Of a stretch of DNA of 60,432 nucleotides, positions 2,329 through 55,070 are shown in pieces. The notes below the pieces were generated by a model, which saw nothing but the letters and a program-made list of their open reading frames with translations, was not told where the DNA came from and did no database searches. The position numbers and the translations under genes were made by a program. Source of the DNA: Minisyncoccota bacterium (lineage in GTDB: Bacteria > Patescibacteriota > Minisyncoccia > UBA6257 > UBA9933). The first letter of the stretch is position 1. Each line of letters begins with the position of its first letter. The stretch spans positions 1 to 60,432 of the forward strand of contig JBAZLC010000004.1 of assembly GCA_041650415.1 (NCBI GenBank), given 5' to 3'.

Positions 2329-2395
2329 TATTCATCTGCTTACCGGGTTTTTCGGGTTTTCCTGATTTATGAGGTTTTGCAGAAAAAGTTGGAAA

Positions 2396-2443
2396 ATAAA
2401 AAAAACCACCCAAGTCGTCGATTGACGATGATGTCTTGGGTGG
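2396..2443 (-). terminator. Rho-independent terminator of the 2470-2850 gene
   Basis: Stem ccacccaag (2406-2414) pairs with cttgggtgg (2435-2443). The A-run at 2396-2405 gives a T-tract on the minus strand. Confidence 0.75.
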
Positions 2444-2469
2444 GGTCTATCTGTGCTACTTGGAGATTC

Positions 2470-2850
2470 TTATGCGTGGGTATCGATCTTGGTGCCTTTG
2501 GTACCAAGATCCGGGCCGATGTCGATGATGGGATTGTCCTTGTTGGTGGTGGCCGAAGGCACGATGTCCGGTGCCAGAAGTATGGCACTCAGGAACATTT
2601 GCCTGGTAACCTCGGGCGAACAGGCCGCGTGGATTTCCCGGAGTTTTTTCATGACTCCGTCAGCCTCCTTTTCAGGAATAACCATCTCTTTCAGAATCTG
2701 AGTCCCGAAGAGAAGGGCGCCAATCAATATGGCGCCTTGGATATTGTCCGGGTGTTCATTCTTGAAAAGCTCGGTCGCTTTTTCAACGACCTGACCGATT
2801 TTCTTGGGGATGACCACATGGGCTGGTCCCCGTTCGACCGTTCCATTCAT
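2470..2850 (-). CDS. Hypothetical 126-aa protein in GC-rich island A
   Basis: AAGGAGG sits 5 nt upstream of the ATG (plus-strand 2856-2862). Upstream promoter TTGATT-17-TATAAT, downstream terminator. I counted 35/60 G+C by hand in 2521-2580. No family recognised. Confidence 0.65.
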   Translation of the reverse strand: MNGTVERGPAHVVIPKKIGQVVEKATELFKNEHPDNIQGAILIGALLFGTQILKEMVIPEKEADGVMKKLREIHAACSPEVTRQMFLSAILLAPDIVPSATTNKDNPIIDIGPDLGTKGTKIDTHA

Positions 2851-3022
2851 ATAAACCTCCTTAAAAGTTCAATTTCGTCTGAAATTAGACGATAATTTAT
2901 TATAACACAAATACAATAAAAAATCAAGGGTTTGTTATTTTGTTTTAAATTTGATACTTTGAAATTAGAAAGTAAATAAAAATCGAAACTTGAAAACAAA
3001 ATATATGAAAGGAGGGTGAGTC

Positions 3023-3823
3023 ATGAAAAGAATTTTGGGGTTTGTCGCCTTTATTCTTGTTTTCGTGTTTTTTCTGGTGTTTAGCGTCGCGACATCTCAC
3101 GGAAGCGTAAATAACCAGTTTAATAGAATAGAAGACAGGTTGGCGAAAAAACTTGCGGGTGAAGTTGGAAAATCGGAAATCGAAAATATTTTTTCCGACC
3201 CGCGCGTTTGCTTGCAGCCGGAACTTCTGAAAAAACTGGACGCGAAAGGGAAAGGGTTAAGCTATTTCAGTTCCGAGTTCGGACTGCTTAATTTTCTGTC
3301 GTTGTGGCGGGGGAGAAGTGTCTTGAAAAACAATAGCGATGTTTTCTCCGGGATTGAGAAGCGATATGAGGTTGAGAAAGAAGCGCTGGCGGCGATTTTC
3401 CGGATAGAAACAAATTTCGGCGAAAACACCGGCAAATACCGCACATTCAACGCCTTGCTGACATTTTCGGTTCTGAAAAATCGCAGGTCGGAATGGGCGG
3501 AAAAAGAGCTGGCGAATTTGCTTTTACTCAGCTTTCGGAACCAATTGGATGTTTTGGGCATCCATGGTTCATGGGCTGGCGCTTTTGGTTTGTGCCAGTT
3601 TGTGCCGACATCATTTTTGGCTTATGCCGTTGACGGCAATGGCGACGGGAGAGCGGATCTGTTTGTTTTTGAAGACGCCATGGCATCAGCGGCGAATTAC
3701 CTCAGGCGTCACGGCTGGAAAAACGGCGACGTCGAGAAAAAGAAAAAGGCAATCTTCGCTTATAATCGCAGCGAGGAATACGTGAAAGCCGTTTTGGCGT
3801 ATGCCGAGGCGGTAAAGAAATGA
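3023..3823 (+). CDS. Lytic murein transglycosylase (MltB / SLT_2-like) with N-terminal signal or anchor
   Basis: Motifs AIFRIETNFGENTG and GAFGLCQFVPTSFLAYAVDGNGDGRADL. SD AAGGAGGG at 3009-3016. Confidence 0.8.
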   Translation: MKRILGFVAFILVFVFFLVFSVATSHGSVNNQFNRIEDRLAKKLAGEVGKSEIENIFSDPRVCLQPELLKKLDAKGKGLSYFSSEFGLLNFLSLWRGRSVLKNNSDVFSGIEKRYEVEKEALAAIFRIETNFGENTGKYRTFNALLTFSVLKNRRSEWAEKELANLLLLSFRNQLDVLGIHGSWAGAFGLCQFVPTSFLAYAVDGNGDGRADLFVFEDAMASAANYLRRHGWKNGDVEKKKKAIFAYNRSEEYVKAVLAYAEAVKK

Positions 3824-3852
3824 CAACTATAACTTGTAGCTTGCGACACAGA

Positions 3853-3887
3853 CGGCCCGTTTCAGAGATGAGCGGGCCGGTTTTTTA
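3853..3887 (+). terminator. Rho-independent terminator of the transglycosylase gene
   Basis: cggcccg (3853-3859) pairs with cgggccg (3873-3879), followed by TTTTTT. Confidence 0.75.
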
Positions 3888-3893
3888 TTTTCT

Positions 3894-3922
3894 TTGACTT
3901 AAAGAATTTTATGGTTTATAAT
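3894..3922 (+). promoter_or_regulatory. Sigma70-like promoter for the small zinc-ribbon ORF
   Basis: TTGACT (3894-3899), 17-nt spacer, TATAAT (3917-3922). Confidence 0.55.
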
Positions 3923-3978
3923 AAAATTAGATCGGTGATAGTCGTAGCCGCAGAATAATTAATTTAAAAATTAAAGAT

Positions 3979-26700: not shown

Positions 26701-28604
26701 GGGCTAGTTCATTGCCTAATAGCTCAAGCACAATATATTTATTAAATAGTAATGGCGGGAAAGTGGATTCAGCGTTTTATGATTCAATGGTTAATGACGG
26801 ACAAAGTCTGGAAAGAAAAGCTTGGGTAGACAGCTCTTGCGCTCTTTCACAGGAAAACGGTGAATTCTCCGGCAATGGTTGTGATAGTAATAGTGTTAAT
26901 GATTTTGATATTCGCATGACACCAAATCCGCAAAATTCTTTAAGCTTACCAGAGCCGAGAGTCGCGCCGACAAAGCCGGAAAATTTTAACATTCAATACA
27001 ATCAAAGCGGGATGGAAATGAATTTTCAATGGAACGAAGCGCAAGATTATTTAGGCACTTCATTGAATTTAACTTATAAAATTTTTGACATTAGTAATGC
27101 GAGCGCGACTTTGCCGATGGTCGAGTCGACTTCAACGGCGGCAAAAATTATAATAAATGAAATTGGCCGCGATTACCAAGTTTCAATTAAGGCTTTTGAC
27201 AAAGATGGCTTGGGTTCGGAAGCGGCAACTTCTTCAATAAACATTTCGAGTTTTCTTTCGGGTTTATATTTCTACCAAAATTTTCAAGACGGCGAGGTTT
27301 TAATAGACGCCTATTACGGACAGTATCCATTTGTTCCGGATTTGTTTGGGAAGGGTGATACATGGAAAATAGCGGTTTTTTATCTAAATAGCGATGCGAA
27401 AAATGATTTAAATAATCCTTCTTGGCAGCCAAATGATATAACAGATGTTTTGGGGTTAAAATACAATCAATGCGCTGGTGGAACAGGTGGAAATTCTTTG
27501 ATTTTGCCCGACGTATCGAATAATTGTGGAATGGGCGGTGGCGCGGCAAATGTATCTTTCAGTAATTCTCAATTGGAAGACAAACATTTTATTATAAAAA
27601 CCGCTAAATCAATTGGAGAATTAAATCTTGATGGAAGCGATTTTATAACAACGGTTTTTTATTCTGTCTCGTCTATTTCACCTTCCAATCCATTGAGCCC
27701 AGATTTTCAATTGGTTGCCAAAGATAAAATAAAATATTATTTTGGTGCTGAACCATCAAGACAAAGTCCAGTTTTCAATGGCGAAATAGTTAAAGATTTT
27801 GATAGTGTAAATTCTAAATTAAATCTTTTTTGGCCAAGAGCTACAGATATAGACACGTTGGATAACCTTTTAACTTATGAAATTAAATACAATGACGAAG
27901 ATTGGATTTCTGCGGGCAACGCCACGGGGACTTCAAGATTTGTTTCGCCCGGCGAAAATTTTTCAATAAGCGTTCGGGCTAGGGATGACTCCGCTAATTA
28001 TTCAGTTTCAACACTTTTGGAAAATTGGTCATATCCGCCGATTAATTTCGGTTTAGTTCAAGAAGTTGGTGATAGTTGGAGTGATAATTTTGGACAAATG
28101 AATTGGAATGGCATTAGTGGGGCGAATATCCAGAGTATTTTACCGGCAGGAAATTTGGAATTTAATAAATTTGTTTTAAAAGTAAAACATTCACAAGATA
28201 CCGGAAGCAGTTTTGATTTAAAGCTTTCGGTTTTTGGCAATAAATTTTTCAACGGTCAAAATGTGCCGGATTTCAATAATCTTATTTCGGCTTCAACAAT
28301 TTCGGGTTTGTCTGGCGACCCGCAAAATCGGGATTTGGTTTTTAGTTTTTCGTCGAACATTGTTTTGAGCGCGGGCGTTAGATATTGGTTTGTTTTGGAA
28401 AATTCAAGCTACACATTCCATTCATATAACGATTTAACTTCAAACTCCTGGCAAAACGCAATAAGTGCAGGCGATGTTTATCCTGACGGGGAATCGGGAA
28501 GGGCGTTTATGAGAATTTCTGGAACAAACGGAACTTATATAGATGGTTCGGCGGAGATAAACTCCGCTGTGGATTGGTATATGAAAATTGGTTTAGGGGA
28601 ATAA
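23739..28604 (+). CDS. 1621-aa secreted multidomain surface protein: N-terminal zinc phospholipase C / P1 nuclease-like domain, three lamin-tail (LTD) domains, a PKD domain, and FN3-like and beta-rich C-terminal regions
   Basis: Signal peptide ending IAFA|YDVDTHAYL. Metal-site-like HFYDP and GHILHLIEDASVPEHT. LTD motifs VIINEVAWMGS...EWIELKN, ILINEVQISP...FIKLYNPNNSDVNL and VVISEILFKAQGDDEGKEFIELYNPTNSDVNL. PKD motif YEWSFGDGG. Confidence 0.85.
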   Translation: MENRKHVKFLVPIFILGLFIFQNNIAFAYDVDTHAYLTSEVVKFYNQNFPNSKISNELNDYLIDGSRKEDDVPRPMNHFYDPVNNRGLVDSTLGSWQKSKDWSQDSNNQNKSTYKVPATVASILTAIQQRSINLITDETDFTWQRAIKFYVAGDKEKAMFILGHILHLIEDASVPEHTRNDIHLLTNPYENYTDKFSIYSPDSKLTQKLANKGPINLDSLNSYFDNLANYSNNNFYSVGTIGVQSGYEKPVPADYEKINELYYALNSANDSVYKLSVQPTRSSVLMNIDGIVSIDDRLVLDNYWSLLSVKSIQYGAGVINLFFQEVEKAKNDPNFNTTEEKSFIGKAVEATSNFIAQVSSTANNIVSSAGNFLTGIFKTGDNFQQVGQIDLSQSESQNLDKNSETQSVNKELTPKSNEQINQTKDVMELDENEIVLENGNQDDFKLDKNLKDKVKVIPATTVKQCPFDTIQTLSRQKVIINEVAWMGSSNSANDEWIELKNISGGDIDISGWQLVDKDEQIKINFASIEGGKIVGPNRILLFERTDDDSVLGIKADLIYSGALSNTNEGLRLFDEQCNLVDEISADPDWPAGNSSERKTTERDIGGFNWHTSNIINGTPKAENSGGLITSKATQVTYSGGGGSSSNQNQQLTQAKILINEVQISPAGSRFIKLYNPNNSDVNLTNWYIQRKTKTGSSFSSLVSKTYFENKTISAKNYFLISRSATGADAVVDDLTLTEANSIQIKNSNGDVSDKVGWGDAIDCEGSCASEPAENQSIKRKSQNGAFVDTDNNANDFEVTNIQATQSDQAPSAFFDYSPKSLQVGQTVNFNASSSTDPGGQEIVSYEWSFGDGGTLISANPTASHIYSRFGNYQASLVVFNTSGVSSTPATANIPVSISGADHVVISEILFKAQGDDEGKEFIELYNPTNSDVNLSDYSLEILTGDATSTDSLAKFGSKAEDGILIKSKSFFLIGFHNYIGSIPADITRASSLPNSSSTIYLLNSNGGKVDSAFYDSMVNDGQSLERKAWVDSSCALSQENGEFSGNGCDSNSVNDFDIRMTPNPQNSLSLPEPRVAPTKPENFNIQYNQSGMEMNFQWNEAQDYLGTSLNLTYKIFDISNASATLPMVESTSTAAKIIINEIGRDYQVSIKAFDKDGLGSEAATSSINISSFLSGLYFYQNFQDGEVLIDAYYGQYPFVPDLFGKGDTWKIAVFYLNSDAKNDLNNPSWQPNDITDVLGLKYNQCAGGTGGNSLILPDVSNNCGMGGGAANVSFSNSQLEDKHFIIKTAKSIGELNLDGSDFITTVFYSVSSISPSNPLSPDFQLVAKDKIKYYFGAEPSRQSPVFNGEIVKDFDSVNSKLNLFWPRATDIDTLDNLLTYEIKYNDEDWISAGNATGTSRFVSPGENFSISVRARDDSANYSVSTLLENWSYPPINFGLVQEVGDSWSDNFGQMNWNGISGANIQSILPAGNLEFNKFVLKVKHSQDTGSSFDLKLSVFGNKFFNGQNVPDFNNLISASTISGLSGDPQNRDLVFSFSSNIVLSAGVRYWFVLENSSYTFHSYNDLTSNSWQNAISAGDVYPDGESGRAFMRISGTNGTYIDGSAEINSAVDWYMKIGLGE

Positions 28605-28645
28605 AAAAGGCCACCCGCGTGTTCGTGAGAACGGGTGGCTTTATG
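28603..28645. terminator. Shared (bidirectional) hairpin terminator between the giant gene and island C gene C1
   Basis: gccacccg (28610-28617) pairs with cgggtggc (28632-28639). Inner pairing gttc-gtga-gaac; A-run on the left, T-rich on the right. Confidence 0.7.
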
Positions 28646-28663
28646 GTTTGGTGCCGGCGAGGC

Positions 28664-28846
28664 CTATGATAGTTGGCCACGCATGTCCGCGACAGTTGCT
28701 GCGGTCTGCTTTTCGTGAAATTCCCTTGCGACATCGGTCGGCTTTTTCTCTCCGTCTTCGTCGCCTTTTCCGGTGGGTGGAGACCCCATGCAGGAATACG
28801 GGTGGCGGACACTTACCGTGTTTTCGGTTGTTTTTGTTTCTGTCAT
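28664..28846 (-). CDS. Island C gene C1: 60-aa hypothetical protein
   Basis: AAGGAG lies 6 nt upstream of the ATG. It has its own terminator and an extended -10 type promoter. MTETKTTENT... No family recognised. Confidence 0.55.
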   Translation of the reverse strand: MTETKTTENTVSVRHPYSCMGSPPTGKGDEDGEKKPTDVAREFHEKQTAATVADMRGQLS

Positions 28847-28907
28847 GGCCTTCTCCTTTCGTTACTCTTTTTGTTTAAAATAACACATGTCTTAACGTGC
28901 CTCTATT

Positions 28908-28935
28908 AAAATATCACGTTATTAATTTTTGTCGA
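28908..28935 (-). promoter_or_regulatory. Candidate promoter of C1
   Basis: On the minus strand: TCGACA, 16-nt spacer, TG-a-TATTTT. Confidence 0.35.
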
Positions 28936-28945
28936 GAAAATTTAA

Positions 28946-28985
28946 AAATAAAAAAGCCGCCATATTCGTGAGAATAGAGGGCGGC
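28946..28985 (-). terminator. Rho-independent terminator of C2
   Basis: gccgcc (28956-28961) pairs with ggcggc (28980-28985). Inner pairing tattc-gtga-gaata. The upstream A-run gives a T-tract on the minus strand. Confidence 0.7.
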
Positions 28986-29023
28986 CGGGGAATGCGTGCC
29001 TTTGCGGCGGGATACGAGTCGGA

Positions 29024-29560
29024 TTAGTGGGGCTTTTTGCCGGTGAGGCCTTCGAGGAAGCTTCGGAAGCCGGTCGGGCGGTTTTCGCCTTGGGCCCTGC
29101 TGAAGATTTCCGCGAGCTCAGGGGGCAGGCCGACGCCGACGGAGATGACATCGACACCGATGCCGTTGTCTTCTTCGGCGGAAACCGCGACGATAACGCC
29201 GTCTTTCCTGATGCCGACGCTGGGGTAATCGTAGACGTTCAGCCCCAGCTCTTCGCGGATCGAGAAGAACAAGATGTTCTTCACAATCTCGCTTTCCGCT
29301 TCTGCCATCTCAGTCCGGCGCCGGAACTCCTCGCACTCGCTCGGATCGCAGGTGGCGCATACTTTCGCGTGGTCTTCATAGGCTTCCTTCGCCTTGACCT
29401 TCAGCCAGTGGAGGACCTTGAAGAGGGTTGCCATCTCTTCCGAGAGCTTCCCTTTCTCTTCTTCCTTCGCCTCTTTTTCGGGGAGGTCGGAAAGGCTGAA
29501 TTTGAAGCTTTCGGGGATTTCCTGAACCATCGCCGCGATTTTTCTAAGCCATTTCGTCAT
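29024..29560 (-). CDS. Island C gene C2: 178-aa hypothetical protein with CxxCx4C
   Basis: AAGGAGA lies 7 nt before the ATG at 29560, which I prefer to 29581. Contains KVCATCDPSECEEF. I counted 38/60 G+C by hand in 29101-29160. No family recognised. Confidence 0.6.
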   Translation of the reverse strand: MTKWLRKIAAMVQEIPESFKFSLSDLPEKEAKEEEKGKLSEEMATLFKVLHWLKVKAKEAYEDHAKVCATCDPSECEEFRRRTEMAEAESEIVKNILFFSIREELGLNVYDYPSVGIRKDGVIVAVSAEEDNGIGVDVISVGVGLPPELAEIFSRAQGENRPTGFRSFLEGLTGKKPH

Positions 29561-29726
29561 TGGTGAATCTCCTTTCGTCATTCGTGGTTAGCCGTCCGTG
29601 TTTAAAATTACCGCAAAAACCTTTTTAAGTTATCTCCTTTTTTTGTCTCGTTTGTGAGACATGAATTTTTGTACTGAAATTTATTTACCATATTTTGCTT
29701 TGTTTTGTCAAGAATTAAAAATTCAG

Positions 29727-29762
29727 AAATAAAAAGGCCACCATGTTTACACAGAGGGTGGC
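29727..29762 (-). terminator. Rho-independent terminator of C3
   Basis: gccacc (29737-29742) pairs with ggtggc (29757-29762). The A-run at 29725-29735 gives a T-tract on the minus strand. Confidence 0.6.
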
Positions 29763-29797
29763 TTGTTGAGGTTGCACGTCGCGGAGAGCAACGCAGA

Positions 29798-30031
29798 TTA
29801 GTCGAATACCGATTTGCCGTCGAATGCCGCGAGAATGCCTTCGCATTCGGGAGGCAGGACCGGTTCGGCGGGCGTCGGCTGGCCGCACTGCATGGCGATG
29901 AGTTCGTTCATCGCCGTGGTATCGGTGGCGAAGACTAAAGAGGCTTCACCACTTACCCCCTTCGAACACGGCTTTTCGCAGAGGTTCGATTCTGCTGAAC
30001 CAGATGCGGTCGTCTTGTTGTTCTCTGTCAT
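29798..30031 (-). CDS. Island C gene C3: 77-aa hypothetical protein with four Cys
   Basis: GGAGGAGG lies about 6 nt before the ATG at 30031. MTENNKTTASGSAESNLCEKPCSKG... The N-terminus resembles C1 (MTE-x-K/N-TT). Confidence 0.55.
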   Translation of the reverse strand: MTENNKTTASGSAESNLCEKPCSKGVSGEASLVFATDTTAMNELIAMQCGQPTPAEPVLPPECEGILAAFDGKSVFD

Positions 30032-30084
30032 GTTCTTCCTCCTCCTTTCCGACGATGTCTTTTTCTTCTGAATTTTCACCAACA

Positions 30085-30134
30085 GAAATTTCGAATTGAA
30101 GAGAATTAGGCGTCCCTTTTAAAATCGAAATTTC
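30085..30134 (-). promoter_or_regulatory. Stem-loop in the roughly 160-nt 5' leader of C3
   Basis: gaaatttcga (30085-30094) and tcgaaatttc (30125-30134) are 10-bp inverted repeats separated by 30 nt. Confidence 0.4.
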
Positions 30135-30209
30135 AACAAGAAATTTTTTTGCCATTTTCTCCACGATTCTCCTTTCTGTTTTTTACAATTTCAAATGAAC
30201 TTAAAATAT

Positions 30210-30238
30210 AAACTATCACATTTTTATAATTTTGTCAA
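30210..30238 (-). promoter_or_regulatory. Leftward promoter of the island C divergent control region
   Basis: On the minus strand: TTGACA (30238-30233), 17-nt spacer ending TG-a, then TAGTTT (30215-30210). Confidence 0.5.
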
Positions 30239-30263
30239 TATCTCTTGTTTATTATTTAATAAA

Positions 30264-30292
30264 TTGACAAAAAATTATTTTAAGGTTATTAT
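30264..30292 (+). promoter_or_regulatory. Rightward promoter of the island C divergent control region
   Basis: TTGACA (30264-30269), 17-nt spacer, TATTAT (30287-30292). The two -35 boxes lie inside the 10-bp inverted repeat ttttgtcaat / attgacaaaa. Confidence 0.55.
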
Positions 30293-30371
30293 TTGGTTTA
30301 GCAATTTACCAAGCTTTTTGGTGGAAATATCTTAAATATACAGACATCATCTTTAATAAAAAGGAGGCGAT

Positions 30372-30710
30372 ATGGAAAAAAAGAGAGAAACGCTTTTGTG
30401 CCCGTTTAAGGAGGTGTGCCCGGTATGGAGTTCGGGTTGCACGTCGGATTACGCGACGGCCTCAAACTGCGGGTTCATCGCTGGCGACAAGAAACGCGTC
30501 GAAGAATGGGCCGCAAAAAAGATTCAGGAAGAGAACGGTAAAATCAGTTTCATCTCTCCCGAATTTTTGGTCTTTAAGGACACCGTCAAGTATCTGACCG
30601 ACGCCGAGTTCTATAAGGTTGTTAACGACGCGTACGATGCGTATGTGGCGCCCAAAAAACCAACGGAGCCCTTCAAAAAAAGGGCTGAAAAATCACCGTA
30701 TTTCGCGTAA
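30372..30710 (+). CDS. Island C gene C4: 112-aa hypothetical protein with an N-terminal four-Cys cluster
   Basis: AGGAGG lies 4-5 nt before the ATG. LLCPFKEVCPVWSSGCTSDYATASNCGF. No family recognised. Confidence 0.6.
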   Translation: MEKKRETLLCPFKEVCPVWSSGCTSDYATASNCGFIAGDKKRVEEWAAKKIQEENGKISFISPEFLVFKDTVKYLTDAEFYKVVNDAYDAYVAPKKPTEPFKKRAEKSPYFA

Positions 30711-30721
30711 AGGAGGAGTGC

Positions 30722-31108
30722 ATGGAAAAAGGAAAAGGACAGACTTGCGGAATGGCGTTTTCTTGCGGGTGTCGAATTCCCAACGGCGCGGGCTGCAATT
30801 GCACGGTCTGCGTTCCCCAAAATGGAAACGCGGGGCTTCTGTGCGCTCAATTCAAATGCGCATATGTGGCGAATCAGATCTGTCAGAAAAAGACGATTCT
30901 GGATATTATCTATTACCAGATCGTCAATTCGGGCGGATATTGCGCGGACGGGAACCCGTGGTACGAAGCCCTCAAGGTGGCTGCCGGAAGCGCGGACAAG
31001 CTGAAAGCCATAGAAAAGGTTGCCTGGAGAAAGAAAGCAGCGGGTGCCTTTTCCAGTGCCAGGCGATCGGCCTGTACTTTGCCGTTCGCCCGAGCCGAAC
31101 AACCATGA
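30722..31108 (+). CDS. Island C gene C5: 128-aa cysteine-rich protein (11 Cys)
   Basis: AGGAGG follows directly after the C4 stop. QTCGMAFSCGCRIPNGAGCNCTVCVPQNGNAGLLCAQFKCAYVANQIC. No family recognised. Confidence 0.55.
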   Translation: MEKGKGQTCGMAFSCGCRIPNGAGCNCTVCVPQNGNAGLLCAQFKCAYVANQICQKKTILDIIYYQIVNSGGYCADGNPWYEALKVAAGSADKLKAIEKVAWRKKAAGAFSSARRSACTLPFARAEQP

Positions 31109-31132
31109 TCTGTAGTTTCTCAATCAGAGTGT

Positions 31133-31169
31133 AGCCCGTTTTCTTGGAGGAGATAACGGGCTTTTTTTA
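31133..31169 (+). terminator. Rho-independent terminator of C4-C5
   Basis: agcccgtt pairs with aacgggct, followed by TTTTTTT. Confidence 0.8.
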
Positions 31170-31191
31170 TTGAAAATGCTAAACTTATTTT

Positions 31192-31830
31192 ATGGTTGCC
31201 AAAAAACGAAAATACATAATAGGAATAGATGAGGTTGGAAGAGGACCGTTGGCGGGAGAAGTAACCGTGGCGGCAATTTTACTACAAAAGAATTTTCGAT
31301 TCACAAAACCCAATTTTCAAAAAAAATTAAAACTTCGGGATTCTAAAAAATTATCGCCAAAGCAGCGCGAGATTTGGTTTGAATATATTAAAGAAGAATT
31401 ATGTTTGGGTTATGCGGTAGCAAGCGTTTCACCTAAAAAAATAGATAGAATAAATATTTCCAACGCCGCGAATTTAGCGGCAGTGAAGGCGTTTGAATCT
31501 TTAATAAAAAAAACAAAAATAAAAATTGAAAATTGCGAAGTTTGTTTGGATGGAGGACTTTATTTAAAAACTACAAACAATAAACTGCAAACGGCAAAAT
31601 ATAAACAGCGGACGATTATAAGGGGCGACGAGAAAATTCCGGCGATTTCGTTAGCCTCAATTGTCGCTAAGGTAATCCGGGATAAGAAAATGGAAAAGTC
31701 GCATAAAAAATACCCTCAATACGGATTTAAAAACCATAAAGGCTACGGCACAAAAGAGCATTTTAGGGCGATAAAAAAGCACGGGCCGTCAAAAATACAC
31801 AGATTGACCTTCCTTAAGAAAATGCGTTAA
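31192..31830 (+). CDS. rnhB: Ribonuclease HII
   Basis: IIGIDEVGRGPLAGEV, RDSKKLS, ASIVAKV. Confidence 0.9.
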   Translation: MVAKKRKYIIGIDEVGRGPLAGEVTVAAILLQKNFRFTKPNFQKKLKLRDSKKLSPKQREIWFEYIKEELCLGYAVASVSPKKIDRINISNAANLAAVKAFESLIKKTKIKIENCEVCLDGGLYLKTTNNKLQTAKYKQRTIIRGDEKIPAISLASIVAKVIRDKKMEKSHKKYPQYGFKNHKGYGTKEHFRAIKKHGPSKIHRLTFLKKMR

Positions 31831-34963: not shown

Positions 34964-37900
34964 ATGTTTAAAAACCTCAAAAATTTCAATCCCGCGGAAA
35001 TCGAGGAAAAAGTGCTTGAATTTTGGCAAATCAATAAAGTTTTCGAAAAATCAATAGAAAAGCCGGCATCGGAAAAGTCTAAGGGCGACTACGTTTTTTT
35101 TGACGGACCTCCTTTTGCCAATGGATTGCCTCATTACGGTCATATTTTGGCTTCAATAATAAAAGACGCGATTCCGAGATATCAAACAATGAAAGGAAAA
35201 AGCGTAAAAAGGCGCTGGGGTTGGGATTGCCACGGCTTGCCGGTTGAGTTTGAAATCGAAAAAGAACTCGGTTTGAAGAGTAAAAAAGACATTATTGAAT
35301 TCGGCGTTGAAAAATTCAACGAGTTTGCCAGAAAAAGCGTTTTAAAATACGAATCGGAGTGGAAAAAAACGATTCCGAGAATCGGCCGCTGGGTCGATAT
35401 GGAAAATCCGTATAAAACAATGGACGTTGAATATATGGAGTCGGTTTTGCACGTTTTCAAAAGTTTATATGATAAAAATTTAATTTACAAAGGCTATAAG
35501 CCGATGCATATTTGTCCGCGGTGCGAAACAACGCTTTCAAATTTCGAGGTCACTCAAAATTATAAAGATATCGAGGATTTCGCAGTCACGTTAAAATTTG
35601 AATTAGTGGATGAACCGAAAACTTTCGCGCTTGCCTGGACGACGACTGCCTGGACTTTGCCGGGAAACGTGGCTTTGGCGGTAAATCCGAAAATTTATTA
35701 CACAAAAATAAAAATCGGCGGCGAAAAATACGTTTTGGCGGAAGAAAGGTTGGGGATTATAAAAGAAAAATACGAAATTGTAGAAAAATTTAAAGGAGAT
35801 AAATTAGTCGGAAAAACCTACAAACCGCTTTTTGATTATTTTAGCCAGGACAAAACTTTAAAAAACCGGGAAAACGGATGGAAAATTTATCCGGCGGATT
35901 TCGTGAGTATTGAAGAAGGAACGGGCATAGTGCATATCGCTCCCGCTTTTGGCGCCGAAGACATGGAATTGGGCAAGGAATTTAATTTACCGTTCGTTCA
36001 ACACGTCGGTATGGATGGAAAAATAAAAAATGAAGCCGAAGACTTCGCCGGCTTAAAGGCAAAACCAAAAGAAAATACCAGAGAAACGGATGAAAAAGTA
36101 ATAAGTTTTCTTTCGGGAGAAAATTCGGTTTACGGACACGAAAAAATGGTCCACTCGTATCCGCATTGCTGGCGCTGTGAAAACCCGCTTTTGAATTATG
36201 CGGCGTCTTCGTGGTTTGTGAAGGTGACCGATATTAAAGACGGTCTTGTTAAAAATAATCAAAAAATAAGCTGGTTGCCGGCTCACATAAAAGACGGCAG
36301 ATTCGGCCAGTGGCTAAAAGACGCGCGGGATTGGGCGATTTCAAGAAGTCGTTTTTGGGGCGCTCCGCTTCCGGTTTGGGAGTGTAAAAATTGCGGAAAG
36401 CTAAAAGTTATAGGTTCAGTGGAAGAATTAAAGAAAAATTCGGAAAGCTCGGGCAATAAATATTTTGTAATGCGGCATGGGCAAGCGGAAAGTAATCTAC
36501 TCGGGGTTACGAGTTCAAATCATAAAAATAATCATCACCTTACCGATAAGGGTAAAAAAGAAGTAGAAGATGCGCTTAAAAAACTGAAAAATATCGATTT
36601 AATTTTTTCTTCCGATTTTGTCCGGACAAAAGAAACGGCGGAGATGACGGCGAAGCATTTGGAAATAAAAAAAGTTATCTACGATGAAAGATTGCGCGAG
36701 GTCAATACGGGAACTTTTGAGGGCAAAGCGGTAAAAGAATATCACGCTTATTTTTCTTCCACTGAAGAGAAGTTTATCAAGCCGACGCCAAAAGGTGAGA
36801 ATTTAACCGATTTAAAAAATCGTATAACAGAATTTATTTATGAAATTGAAAAAAAACATTCAAACAAAAATATTTTAATTATCAGTCATGAGTATCCAAT
36901 TTGGCTTTTGTTTGCCGGAGCTGAAGGAGCGGACGCCAAAAAAGCGATTGCGATGAGGGGCAAGAAAGACGACTTTTTGAAAACCGGAGAAATTAAAAAT
37001 TTAAAATTCGTTCCAATGCCGCATAATAGAAATTACGAGCTTGATTTACACAGGCCGTATATTGATAAAGTTGAACTTAGTTGTGGTTGTGACGGAAAGA
37101 TGAAAAGAATTGAAGACGTTTTCGATTGCTGGTTCGAGTCGGGCTCAATGCCTTACGGTCAATCGCATTACCCCTTCGCCGTAACAAACAATAAACGACA
37201 AATAACAAACAATAATTTACCGGTGCCAGCGGAATTTATTGCCGAGGGAATGGATCAGACACGCGGCTGGTTTTACACACTGCTTATTCTCTCAACAGCT
37301 TTGTTTAATAAACCGGCCTACAAAAATGTTATTGTTAACGGCATAATCTTGGCGGAAAGCGGCCAAAAAATGAGCAAACGCCTTAAAAATTATCCCGACC
37401 CGATGGAACTTGTTTCAAAATACGGCGCGGACAGTTTGCGGTTATATTTGCTTTCTTCGCCGGTGGTGGCGGGCGAGAACTTAAATTTTTCCGAAAAAGG
37501 CGTGGACGAAGTTTACAAAAAAATGATTCTGCGGCTTTGGAATACTTATAAATTTTATGAAATGTATGCGAGCGAACAAACGACAAACGACAAACGACAA
37601 ACGACAAACATTCTGGATGAATGGGTTATTGCCAGATTGGAGCAATTAAAACTGGAAGTTTCTGGCGCACTTGAAAATTACGAACTTGATAAGGCAGTTA
37701 GGCCACTTGGAGGTTTTATCGACGACCTTTCAACTTGGTATATCAGGCGTTCGCGCGAAAGATTTAAATCGGAAGGCAGTGATAAATCCGCCGCGATAGA
37801 AACGACGAAATACATTTTGTCGGAATTTTCAAAAATTCTTGCGCCATTCGCGCCATTTATAGCAGAAGCGGTTTATCAAAGCATAAATAGCAAACAAAAA

Positions 37901-38458
37901 GGAAGCGTGCATTTGGAAAAGTGGCCGGTTTTTGACAAAAAATTGATAGATAAAAATTTATTGGATTCAATGGCGGAAGTCAGAAAAATTGCTTCACTGG
38001 CTTTGGAATTAAGAGGTAAGGAAGGAATTAAAGTAAGACAGCCGTTGTCCTCGTTGAGTATTAAGAACAAAGTATTAAGTATTAAAGACGAAGAGTTATT
38101 AAATATTTTGGCGGACGAAATTAACGTTAAGCAAATTATTTTTAACGGTAAAATAAAAGAAGAAGTTGAATTAGATAAAAATATTACGCCGGAGTTGAAA
38201 GTCGAAGGATTATTAAGGGAAGCGGCGAGGGCGGTTCAGGATTTGAGAAAAGAAGCCGGCCTTTCGCCGAAAGATAAAATCGATTTATGGTTGGAAGTCC
38301 CGGCGGAAATCCGTTCGGCAATAGAGAAAAGCATAAACGAATTCAAAGAAAAAATTTGCGCTAAAAACGTTTATTTCGGCCGGACGGATAAGTTTGACGC
38401 CGAAACCGAAACAAAAATGGACGGTTCGCAAATCTGGGCGGGAGTTAAAAAAGTTTAA
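34964..38458 (+). CDS. ileS: Isoleucine--tRNA ligase (type 2-like) carrying an internal extra domain
   Basis: HIGH region PFANGLPHYGH, the editing domain, KMSKR (QKMSKRLKN) and an anticodon-binding C-terminus. Confidence 0.95.
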   Translation: MFKNLKNFNPAEIEEKVLEFWQINKVFEKSIEKPASEKSKGDYVFFDGPPFANGLPHYGHILASIIKDAIPRYQTMKGKSVKRRWGWDCHGLPVEFEIEKELGLKSKKDIIEFGVEKFNEFARKSVLKYESEWKKTIPRIGRWVDMENPYKTMDVEYMESVLHVFKSLYDKNLIYKGYKPMHICPRCETTLSNFEVTQNYKDIEDFAVTLKFELVDEPKTFALAWTTTAWTLPGNVALAVNPKIYYTKIKIGGEKYVLAEERLGIIKEKYEIVEKFKGDKLVGKTYKPLFDYFSQDKTLKNRENGWKIYPADFVSIEEGTGIVHIAPAFGAEDMELGKEFNLPFVQHVGMDGKIKNEAEDFAGLKAKPKENTRETDEKVISFLSGENSVYGHEKMVHSYPHCWRCENPLLNYAASSWFVKVTDIKDGLVKNNQKISWLPAHIKDGRFGQWLKDARDWAISRSRFWGAPLPVWECKNCGKLKVIGSVEELKKNSESSGNKYFVMRHGQAESNLLGVTSSNHKNNHHLTDKGKKEVEDALKKLKNIDLIFSSDFVRTKETAEMTAKHLEIKKVIYDERLREVNTGTFEGKAVKEYHAYFSSTEEKFIKPTPKGENLTDLKNRITEFIYEIEKKHSNKNILIISHEYPIWLLFAGAEGADAKKAIAMRGKKDDFLKTGEIKNLKFVPMPHNRNYELDLHRPYIDKVELSCGCDGKMKRIEDVFDCWFESGSMPYGQSHYPFAVTNNKRQITNNNLPVPAEFIAEGMDQTRGWFYTLLILSTALFNKPAYKNVIVNGIILAESGQKMSKRLKNYPDPMELVSKYGADSLRLYLLSSPVVAGENLNFSEKGVDEVYKKMILRLWNTYKFYEMYASEQTTNDKRQTTNILDEWVIARLEQLKLEVSGALENYELDKAVRPLGGFIDDLSTWYIRRSRERFKSEGSDKSAAIETTKYILSEFSKILAPFAPFIAEAVYQSINSKQKGSVHLEKWPVFDKKLIDKNLLDSMAEVRKIASLALELRGKEGIKVRQPLSSLSIKNKVLSIKDEELLNILADEINVKQIIFNGKIKEEVELDKNITPELKVEGLLREAARAVQDLRKEAGLSPKDKIDLWLEVPAEIRSAIEKSINEFKEKICAKNVYFGRTDKFDAETETKMDGSQIWAGVKKV
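36458..37030 (+). other. Histidine-phosphatase (PGAM / His_Phos_1-like) domain inserted in-frame in IleRS, about residues 499-689
   Basis: KYFVMRHGQAESN (RHG motif), SSDFVRTKETAE, RLREVNTGTFEGK, ILIISHEYPI. It is flanked by the normally near-contiguous IleRS segments VWECKNCGKLKVIGSVEEL and DLHRPYIDKVELSCGCDGKMKRIEDVFDCWFESGSMPY. Confidence 0.75.
37574..37610. repeat. Tandem heptamer (CAAACGA / ACGACAA) of at least four units inside ileS
   Basis: gaacaaacgacaaacgacaaacgacaaacgacaaaca, translated EQTTNDKRQTTN. Confidence 0.85.
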
Positions 38459-53784: not shown

Positions 53785-53874
53785 TTAAGTACAAAAATTG
53801 GCACGGTGTCAATTTTGCGCACTTTTATAAAGATTTAAATATAGATTTATAAAAATTAAGATAAGGAGGGTGTG

Positions 53875-54450
53875 ATGAAAGAAGCTCTGTCTGTGTTGGC
53901 GGGTTTGTTATCGATTGTTGCCTTAGTTCCTTATATTCGTGGAATATTGCGGAAGGAAACAAGACCAGCAAAAGCATCGTGGGTCGTATGGGCCATTGTT
54001 GACGTCGTCATTTTGGCGAGTATGTACGCCAAGGGTGTAGTTAACGGCCAAATCATCGGTACGGTCGTCGGTTGTTTAATAGTTACCGTTCTCGCATTGA
54101 AGTATGGGGCGCCAGGCTGGACGAAACTCGACAAATTTTGTCTTATTGGAGCGGTTCTCGGTATTTTTATCTGGCAGATGTCGGGGGAAGCTATCCACGG
54201 CATCGTGATCGCGCTTACGGTTTCAGCTATCGGTTCTGTGCCGACGTTTGTATCTGCATGGGAAGATCACCGCCGCGAAAATAAACCGGCGTGGGCAATG
54301 GTCTGGTTTGGCAGCTTGTGTATGTTTGGGGCAATTCCCGAATGGACATTTGCGTCTGCTGTTCAACCGGTCACGTTCTTCGTACTCCAGTCGGTTTTAA
54401 TCTACATTCTTTTCGTTCGTCCTCGACTCCTTCGTTTGTCGGCTACGTAA
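53875..54450 (+). CDS. Island D gene D3: polytopic membrane protein, about 6 TM, hypothetical
   Basis: AAGGAGG lies 5 nt before the ATG at 53875, and a terminator follows. No family recognised. Confidence 0.6.
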   Translation: MKEALSVLAGLLSIVALVPYIRGILRKETRPAKASWVVWAIVDVVILASMYAKGVVNGQIIGTVVGCLIVTVLALKYGAPGWTKLDKFCLIGAVLGIFIWQMSGEAIHGIVIALTVSAIGSVPTFVSAWEDHRRENKPAWAMVWFGSLCMFGAIPEWTFASAVQPVTFFVLQSVLIYILFVRPRLLRLSAT

Positions 54451-54459
54451 TCCGACGGA

Positions 54460-54503
54460 GACCCCTACGGCGATAGCAGTATCGCCGCGCGGGGTCTTTT
54501 TTT
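54460..54503 (+). terminator. Rho-independent terminator of D3
   Basis: gacccc pairs with ggggtc (inner pairing ggcgata / tatcgcc), followed by TTTTTTT. Confidence 0.75.
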
Positions 54504-54635
54504 ATTAATTCCGTCCGGGCTTGATTATTTAGTCATAAAATGGTATTTGTTTTATTAGTTGTTTTAAAGCTTCAAATAATGGGCTTAAGGTTTTTTACGG
54601 TATACAACCTTGTTTTTTGAAAGGAGGAAGCGGTG

Positions 54636-55070
54636 ATGCATAAATCATTTCACTGGAAGATTGATGGCGCGTGGTGCGGTTTCCTTCATTTTGTCTATAC
54701 CGCATTGGTATGGCTGACTTTCATCTCGGGACGATGCCGGAATTTCTTTCGGTCGGCGTGCATCTATGTGTTCGTTAAAGATGTGTCGCTGTCCGTGGCA
54801 AAGCGGTGGCAGGAATTCAAGGCGGATTTTTCGAAAGGGAATATCTGCAACGGCGACGTTATTGTTGCCATACTCGTCTCGGGTATTTTGCTGCTTGTGG
54901 TAGCATTAGCGGCTGTGGCGTTTGCCATCTACAGGGTGTTAGTCTTTTCTGATTGGTCCATGGCGGTAGCGGTAGCGATTATCGGCCTATGCTATTTTTT
55001 TTGGGACCTACACATTGAACGCCGTGAACGGGCAGAGAAAAGACTTGCGGAAAAACTGGAGATTTCATGA
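54636..55070 (+). CDS. Island D gene D4: membrane protein, hypothetical
   Basis: AGGAGG lies 8 nt before the ATG at 54636. It has TM segments and the basic tail HIERRERAEKRLAEKLE. Confidence 0.55.
   Translation: MHKSFHWKIDGAWCGFLHFVYTALVWLTFISGRCRNFFRSACIYVFVKDVSLSVAKRWQEFKADFSKGNICNGDVIVAILVSGILLLVVALAAVAFAIYRVLVFSDWSMAVAVAIIGLCYFFWDLHIERRERAEKRLAEKLEIS

Follow-up and report, generated by a model that had tools for sequence, protein, structure and literature searches.

We analysed a compact genomic island on a 60,432-nucleotide (nt) stretch of a Minisyncoccota bacterium (GenBank contig JBAZLC010000004.1, positions 1 to 60,432). This whole stretch is called the window. The island, at 28603-31169, lies between a gene for a giant surface protein and rnhB, and carries the small genes C1, C2 and C3 on the minus strand and C4 and C5 on the plus strand (Table 1). 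Very probably this accessory island is real and conserved, its genes are genuine and its content varies; it occupies the same chromosomal slot in related bacteria, in some of which its rightward array runs into a gene for a DnaG-type primase. We judge it an evenly balanced proposition that the window preserves the control (early) end of an integrated element able to replicate itself, from which the primase cassettes have been lost here.

The comparison used loci L003-L021 from public assemblies and metagenomes, among them two short C4-C5 fragments (L009 and L010). In at least five other related genomes the slot is fixed, directly after the stop codon of a giant LTD/PKD gene encoding 1,560-1,630 amino acids (aa), and the island directly precedes rnhB-mreC wherever the contig extends that far. 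The initial annotation had suggested recent horizontal acquisition; in its simple form this view has to be given up, as the same slot is filled in these genomes between flanking host proteins 63-88% identical to those of the window. The island proteins are only 28-60% identical, and the island is therefore old at its site rather than a recent import. Indeed, island genes diverge far faster than the flanks. Nor do the five genes travel together, as had been proposed: C3 is confined to the window genome, C5 is absent from L011 and C2 from L017, and lone C2 relatives occur elsewhere. The order of C1 and C2 also varies, that of the window being swapped relative to all other loci, with C3 in the usual place of C1. 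Neighbouring genes have separate histories. Between L008 and L009, C4 is 87% identical (synonymous divergence, dS, 0.33), the adjacent C5 52% (dS 1.4) and X107, a gene described below, 64%; between L003 and L008, C5 is 68% identical and C4 only 31%. The C2 tree joins the window with L003 and not with L016, and a tree of the giant-protein C terminus gives the same L003 neighbour. The hosts form a small group of related uncultivated bacteria, probably Patescibacteria.

In L008, L016 and L017 the rightward genes form the array C4-(C5)-X107-primase, where X107 encodes 107 aa. The last protein of this array (911 aa in L008, 949 aa in L017) has a CHC2 zinc ribbon and a Toprim_3 domain near its C terminus, and its first ~550 residues match nothing. 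Matches above the cutoff were to Zn_ribbon_DnaG (PF01807, 8.3e-10) and Toprim_3 (PF13362, 1.4e-9); other matches were to phrog_47 (DNA primase, 2e-13) and to Aquifex DnaG (PDB 2au3, 1.6e-8). By this combination of zinc ribbon and Toprim domain the protein is a DnaG-type primase. Canonical bacterial dnaG was rejected as its identity, with 39 bits for TIGR01391 against a cutoff of 284. The primase occurs patchily: it is present in L017 but missing from L019, the nearest host relative of that locus (85% identity in the tail of the giant protein). The island had been described as not an obvious mobile element, which holds for the window taken alone, but the cassette array of the relatives carries this candidate replication gene.

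The genes of the island are organized as self-contained units. Their own Shine-Dalgarno sites, near-consensus TTGACA promoters and hairpin terminators, as well as the divergent TTGACA promoter pair of the control region, were all recovered from the open reading frame (ORF) list, a promoter scan and folding, as first annotated. Promoter-like sites number 9 in the island against 2.7 expected, and matches to TTGACAAAA are concentrated there (3 of the 6 on the 60-kb contig fall within these 2.5 kb). Four hairpins rich in G+C, each leading into a U tract, have much better folding energies than shuffled sequences (z = -2.0 to -4.4). In a repeat search, the junctions that follow C2 and C3 and those that precede C1 and C2 emerged as paralogous terminator-plus-promoter units. 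The promoter-gene-terminator layout proved a genuine hallmark, continuing along the longer island of L008, where units of terminator, TTGACA promoter and gene run on through X107, the primase and one further gene; it is therefore the building plan of the whole array.

Regulatory DNA is better preserved than the proteins that it serves. The C2 promoter and leader block can be aligned across the window, L003, L008, L011, L016 and L019, whose C2 proteins are only 28-53% identical. The leader (29561-29700 in the window, with L003, L008 and L016) reads AAAAAAGGAGATAA.TTAA.AAG.TTTTTGCGG.AATTTTAAACACGGA and is far better conserved than the encoded protein; its alignment gave only a 4-bp consensus hairpin, without covariation, and no obvious small ORF. 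Seven other loci retain both the plus-strand promoter of C4 and the palindrome downstream of it. Both promoter blocks, that of C2 and that of C4, align among loci whose proteins have fallen to 30-50% identity, which points to a shared regulator, and such blocks would be an obvious substrate for cassette exchange.

The first description of the island as a distinct GC-rich block was borne out, since it is the strongest compositional outlier on the contig. G+C (GC) content per 500 bp over 28501-31000 is 0.47, 0.59, 0.47, 0.36 and 0.50, against 0.33-0.40 on both sides (0.36-0.38 in the giant gene and 0.33-0.40 from rnhB on). The drop to 0.36 is the AT-rich control region, and the contig maximum, 0.586, lies at 29001-29500. 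GC content at third codon positions (GC3) is 0.54 for C1, 0.75 for C2, 0.67 for C3, 0.62 for C4 and 0.58 for C5, compared with 0.31-0.39 in the flanks (giant gene 0.31, rnhB 0.35, mreC 0.38) and a contig mean of 0.42 (s.d. 0.075). The excess therefore lies at silent sites and does not come from amino-acid content; the silent-site composition of the island is foreign-like. GC3 is also elevated in the islands of the relatives, the window copy having the highest of all. Weaker, moderate GC3 outliers (0.50-0.55) occur elsewhere on the contig, in the genes at 2377-3823 and 53872-55070.

The island is not a chimera, a concern raised at the outset, because both junctions recur in two other assemblies, making three from different samples. 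Both junctions are reproduced at 99.97% identity by L001, a 54-kb ENA contig, and by L002, a 3-kb Logan contig that was assembled independently from another run and covers window positions 28360-31356; across the island there is one single difference, at 29955. Searches of Pfam, PHROGs and NCBIfam gave no integrase or transposase match for C1-C5. No direct repeat brackets the island in a repeat search of 28400-31400, which returned only a 27-nt, 78% inverted match overlapping the coding flanks. The same interval has no Rfam match even at E≤1, and no tRNA or tandem feature lies inside the island.

The five ORFs have exactly the lengths and cysteine counts first listed for them, with cysteines at residues 68, 71 and 76 of C2 and 10, 16, 23 and 33 of C4. 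Pairwise ratios of nonsynonymous to synonymous substitution (dN/dS) are 0.10-0.30 for C1, C2, C4, C5, X107 and the primase (individually, C1 0.30 against L003, C2 0.25, C4 0.18 and C5 0.13-0.29). Judged by their homologs and these ratios C1, C2, C4 and C5 are genuine genes under purifying selection; the status of C3 is uncertain, as an overlapping ORF, C3b, competes with it. The absence of any recognized family also held: Pfam, PHROGs, PADLOC, NCBIfam, PDB and BFVD searches gave no meaningful match. Pfam matched no member of the C2, C4 (nine members) and C5 (six members) alignments, NCBIfam had nothing for C4 and C5, and C2, C4, C5 and X107 gave only coiled-coil noise against PDB sequence profiles. 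Inspection and grand average of hydropathy (GRAVY) values revealed no signal peptide and no hydrophobic segment in the island proteins. Homologs of C1 are 46-60% identical in L003, L008 and L017, with weaker ones in L016 and L011. The N terminus that C1 and C3 had seemed to share reduces to a 15-nt DNA match.

C4 has eight further homologs in which cysteines 10, 16, 23 and 33 are invariant, and C5 has six, in L003, L008, L009, L010, L017 and L019. Profile alignment with hhalign relates C4 to C5 (95.6% probability, E = 1.2e-8), by which the two are paralogs of a new four-cysteine family, with C5 the diverged member. Most C5 proteins contain an extra N-terminal copy of the cysteine motif, which the window C5 lacks. 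Given the four invariant cysteines, metal binding is plausible only for C4 and C5.

The C2 family is small, with 27 cluster representatives at E≤1e-3 among 1.84 billion. The CxxCx4C motif singled out in the initial annotation is present in the window protein but is not conserved across the family. An AlphaFold2 (AF2) model of C2 (predicted local distance difference test, pLDDT, 84, and >90 for residues 1-130) predicts a long helical hairpin on a small beta sheet with a disordered tail, and Foldseek searches with it against PDB and BFVD returned nothing better than E = 0.04. The more distant members of the C2 family stand alone, each behind a TTGACA promoter of its own. The member in L021 (P0021, labelled Patescibacteria) has an M50 peptidase gene on one side and rpsL on the other; that in L018 (9478-11015) is flanked by rnhA (RNase HI) and the RNase P RNA (RF00010, 126 bits). 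C2 is therefore not strictly an island gene. We noted that RNase H neighbours recur, the L018 homolog standing beside an RNase HI gene and the window island abutting an RNase HII gene, which may be coincidence. A search of GTDB genomes with C2 found only one metagenome-assembled genome (MAG), already found otherwise. The public gene call overlooked the C2 homolog of L008 (3721-4215, minus strand, 164 aa) and instead annotated a 97-aa ORF on the opposite strand (3673-3966); protein-database searches therefore under-count the family.

C3 has no homolog in any locus compared. The gene caller chose C3b in L001, and the GC3 of C3b is 0.40, against an island-like 0.67 for C3. The AT-rich part of C3b holds a 19-nt inverted repeat (30085-30134), and the only single-nucleotide polymorphism (SNP) of the island, at 29955, is silent in the C3b frame but changes a residue in the C3 frame. 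C3b may be the leader of C3 rather than a gene. A run of five G residues lies within the overlap of the two ORFs. It is possible that C3 and C3b are a single frameshifted gene of ~125 aa, or that they are a leader plus a gene.

Table 1. Features of the island in the window, and gene order in the same slot of related loci (slashes separate the flanking genes and the leftward and rightward gene groups).
Feature or locus	Position	Strand	Description
Terminator T1	28610..28639	-	3' of C1, directly after giant gene stop; -17.1 kcal/mol, z = -4.4, U tract
C1	28664-28846	-	60 aa, acidic; signature RPYSC(I/M)G.PP ... EKKP ... HEK ... VADMRGQL
C1 promoter	28908..28935	-	TCGACA, 16-nt spacer, TG-extended -10; promoter scan; paralogous to C2 promoter block
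Terminator T2	28955..28986	-	3' of C2; -16.5 kcal/mol, z = -3.5; 30 nt 83% identical to T3 junction
C2	29024-29560	-	178 aa, acidic; 185 aa from upstream ATG
C2 promoter and leader	29561..29711	-	TTGACAAAA at 29711-29703; ~150-nt conserved leader, short hairpin TGTCTC-N6-GAGACA
Terminator T3	29737..29762	-	3' of C3; -12.5 kcal/mol, z = -2.0
C3	29798-30031	-	77 aa, acidic, 4 Cys, strong Shine-Dalgarno site
C3b	29946-30164	-	72-aa alternative ORF, 86-nt overlap with C3 in other frame, own Shine-Dalgarno site
AT-rich divergent control region	30165..30371	both	promoters and palindrome
Minus-strand TTGACAAAA promoter	30238-30230	-	divergent TTGACA at 30238-30233, in control region
C4 promoter	30264-30292	+	TTGACA-17-TATTAT; best site in promoter scan
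Palindrome	30308-30322		ACCAA-N5-TTGGT; conserved, downstream of C4 promoter
C4	30372-30710	+	112 aa; C-x5-C-x6-C-x9-CGFIA, helical body, C-terminal YF(A/V)
C5	30722-31108	+	128 aa, basic, 11 Cys; 11 nt 3' of C4, own Shine-Dalgarno site
Terminator T4	31133..31162	+	3' end of C4-C5 operon; -18.5 kcal/mol, z = -3.8; right edge of island before rnhB (31192)
Window			giant / C1, C2, C3 / C4, C5 / rnhB
L003/L004/L006 (MAG WY2.bin132)			giant / C2, C1 / C4, C5, 57 aa, 91 aa, (159 aa) / rnhB
L011/L012 (GCA_043811875.1)			giant / C2, C1 / C4 / rnhB
L019/L020 (GCA_964428615.1)			giant / C2 / C4, C5 / rnhB
L008 (Logan SRR29054603)			giant / C2, C1 / C4, C5, X107, primase, ...
L017 (JGI Ga0154695)			giant / C1 / C4, C5, X107, primase; found by searching JGI metagenomes with X107
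L016 (JGI contig, flanks off contig)			C2, C1 / C4, 54 aa, X107, primase

The reading of the island as the control end of an element rests on the rightward array, which in the longer islands continues into X107 and the primase; that of an element as such rests on the presence of the primase, a cassette grammar that is uniform throughout, elevated GC3, mosaic evolution and patchy occurrence. The island is built of short cassettes, each of which combines a TTGACA promoter close to consensus with a strong Shine-Dalgarno site and an intrinsic terminator of its own; they are set around a divergent control region from which C2 and C1 run leftwards and C4 and its paralog C5 rightwards. In the longer versions the rightward array adds X107, the primase of 911-949 aa and at least one further gene. 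The element may be plasmid-like or satellite-like, and the window copy would have lost its replication cassettes, keeping small genes that are selected and presumably expressed. C4 and C5 may bind metal through their four invariant cysteines and, at the conserved promoter and palindrome, serve as accessory factors of replication or as regulators that bind nucleic acid, with C2 and C1 as possible maintenance or regulatory partners transcribed in the opposite direction. The repeated terminator-promoter junctions could permit recombinational swapping of cassettes, which would explain both the mosaicism and the changes in gene order. A bolder version, which we put forward tentatively, is that Patescibacteria-like bacteria harbour an undescribed type of integrated replicon made entirely of monocistronic cassettes that shuffle through their repeated junctions, replicated by an unusual C-terminal DnaG-type primase and controlled by the new paralogous pair C4 and C5 at the promoter and palindrome, and that the window holds a domesticated, primase-less derivative whose small proteins serve the host.

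Several observations weigh against an integrated element. We detected no integrase, recombinase, att-like repeat, capsid or transfer gene in the window or its relatives, where the contigs stop before the far end of the primase-bearing islands. A tblastn search of the window for leftovers of X107 or the primase was negative, so that loss of the primase is read from the phylogenetic pattern alone, with gain in three lineages as the alternative. Among IMG/VR contigs, C2, C4, C5, X107 and the primase had no relatives and the DNA pattern of the C4 motif had no match; the primase had no match in plasmid records and one weak match, to the DnaG domain, in phage records (tblastn). Every locus that reaches its flanks sits at the same site, which fits a resident chromosomal locus equally well, and the distant C2 relatives in L021 and L018 are single genes amid housekeeping genes. 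The AF2 model of C4 is poor (pLDDT 64), making its fold matches meaningless.

The main rival reading, which we hold possible but less likely, is that the island is not mobile at all and is a resident, vertically inherited, fast-evolving locus specific to this lineage, which recombines homologously through its flanks and into which X107 and the primase were inserted later. The fixed position, the lack of integrase and att repeats, the near-absence of relatives from viral and plasmid collections (save the weak phage DnaG-domain match), the lone chromosomal C2 relatives and the purifying selection on the genes all fit such a history. However, a GC3 up to 0.35 above that of the flanks would be hard to maintain over long vertical residence, and X107, the primase and the later cassettes use the same promoter and terminator grammar as C1-C5. 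Moreover, L016 has the whole set at uniformly high GC, and neighbouring genes differ sharply in divergence. The module favoured by the initial annotation, five genes recently acquired from a higher-GC partner or host organism, would account for the window GC3 topping that of all other islands (0.75 in C2), for the C-terminal tail (...G.KPH) that the window C2 shares with the GC-rich L016 version, and for the restriction of C3 to the window. This explanation is very improbable, and we regard it as essentially excluded: five other related genomes have homologs of four of the five genes in the same position, the C2 tree places the window with L003 rather than L016, as the giant-protein tree does, the promoter blocks are common to the relatives, and the five genes do not move as a unit.

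A conflict module for defence, counter-defence or toxin-antitoxin function, with C4-C5 acting as a pair independently of replication, would be compatible with either an element or a resident locus. Fast divergence relative to the flanks, mosaicism, variable content at a fixed hotspot and small genes with strong promoters are in keeping with this idea, and the primase of the relatives matched a PADLOC model of a reverse-transcriptase-associated DnaG-like protein (1e-13), in the DnaG domain only. We nevertheless think it unlikely, given that PADLOC had no match for C1-C5 and C3b of the window at E≤1 or for the tested small island proteins of the relatives at E≤0.1, and that no nuclease, NTPase, reverse-transcriptase or toxin fold was recognized. 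Furthermore, dN/dS of 0.1-0.3 indicates no whole-gene positive selection, and paralogy such as that of C4 and C5 is atypical for a toxin-antitoxin pair. The sharp shift in composition at both edges might also suggest that the assembly is chimeric here, or that non-coding or structured-RNA sequence has been taken for genes. The chance of this is negligible, and assembly error is essentially excluded, in view of the three concordant assemblies, the syntenic islands in related genomes, the conservation of the ORFs as proteins (dN/dS well under 1) and the empty Rfam search.

As an integrated element, the island would come closest to P4-like and PICI-like (phage-inducible chromosomal island) satellites and to integrative elements with a Toprim_3/CHC2 primase. 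It resembles these in being compact and at a fixed chromosomal site, in having a divergent control region with small candidate regulators on either side, in the rightward array of the relatives, which reaches a large DnaG-type primase, and in its mosaic evolution and atypical composition. Unlike them, the island loci contained no integrase, att repeats, excisionase/AlpA, helicase domain or packaging-redirection genes; among C1-C5 and the tested island proteins of the relatives no integrase or recombinase was matched, the far ends of the long versions lying off the contigs. The primase domains of the relatives are C-terminal, behind the unmatched region of ~550 aa, the window copy has no primase, and the viral and plasmid collections gave no relatives apart from the one weak phage match. 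C4 and C5, with ~110-160 aa and four invariant N-terminal cysteines followed by helices, recall small zinc-finger transcription factors of mobile elements, such as the Ogr/Delta activators of P2 and P4, and the WhiB-like four-Cys Fe-S regulators, and are encoded at the start of an array leading to replication genes. The resemblance is in kind only, as C4 and C5 have no Pfam, NCBIfam or PDB match. The cysteine spacing of Ogr/Delta and WhiB proteins is other than the C-x5-C-x6-C-x9-C of C4. Like phage 'morons', the island genes each have a strong promoter and an intrinsic terminator and a GC content unlike their surroundings; in contrast to morons, the whole element is so built, the primase included, rather than consisting of single additions to a phage operon, and no phage genes are present. 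Integron cassette arrays share the serial short cassettes, the repeated junctions, and an order and content that vary among relatives, but here there is no IntI, the junctions consist of a terminator hairpin and a TTGACA promoter instead of attC, and the cassettes are self-promoted and point in both directions.

Some further observations concern the contigs themselves. The L011 MAG is labelled 'Spirochaetota bacterium' at NCBI, yet its contig shares with the window the syntenic block giant-island-rnhB-mreC-pheT; we doubt the label, and the contig may belong to another bin, or the classification of the MAG may be wrong. One end of the L016 contig (3330-3435) is Illumina adapter (AGATCGGAAGAGCACACGTCTGAACTCCAGTCAC...) plus a poly-A run, an assembly artefact and no biological terminus. 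Outside the island, the window differs from L001 at three SNPs exactly 3 nt apart (32632, 32635 and 32638) in a small membrane-protein gene downstream of mreC, which may be a strain variant or a local micro-conversion. The isoleucyl-tRNA synthetase (34964-38458 in the window, 14291-17737 in L001; 1148-1164 aa) carries, in precomputed annotation, a Pfam match to His_Phos_1 (histidine phosphatase) inside its synthetase domains.

The general kind of locus described here, a variable genomic island of probable mobile-element origin, is a familiar one. The protein families, however, are undescribed, and a cassette-built, primase-linked island has no counterpart in the libraries and literature searched; the literature contained no description of this island. 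C1, C2 and C4/C5 are three protein families without known relatives, for whose reality the evidence is good, and C2 adds a confidently predicted structure for which no known fold was matched. The island also holds a lesson for annotation, as the gene caller erred twice, calling the strand opposite C2 in L008 and C3b instead of C3 in L001. Should the interpretation as an element prove wrong, what is left is still a clear, fast-evolving hotspot, GC-rich at silent sites, beside a giant surface-protein gene. To our knowledge, few mobile elements have been described for ultra-small, host-dependent bacteria, and this insertion slot, shared by at least six genomes of which some carry the primase and others do not, now offers a comparative series that could define such an element and its decay.

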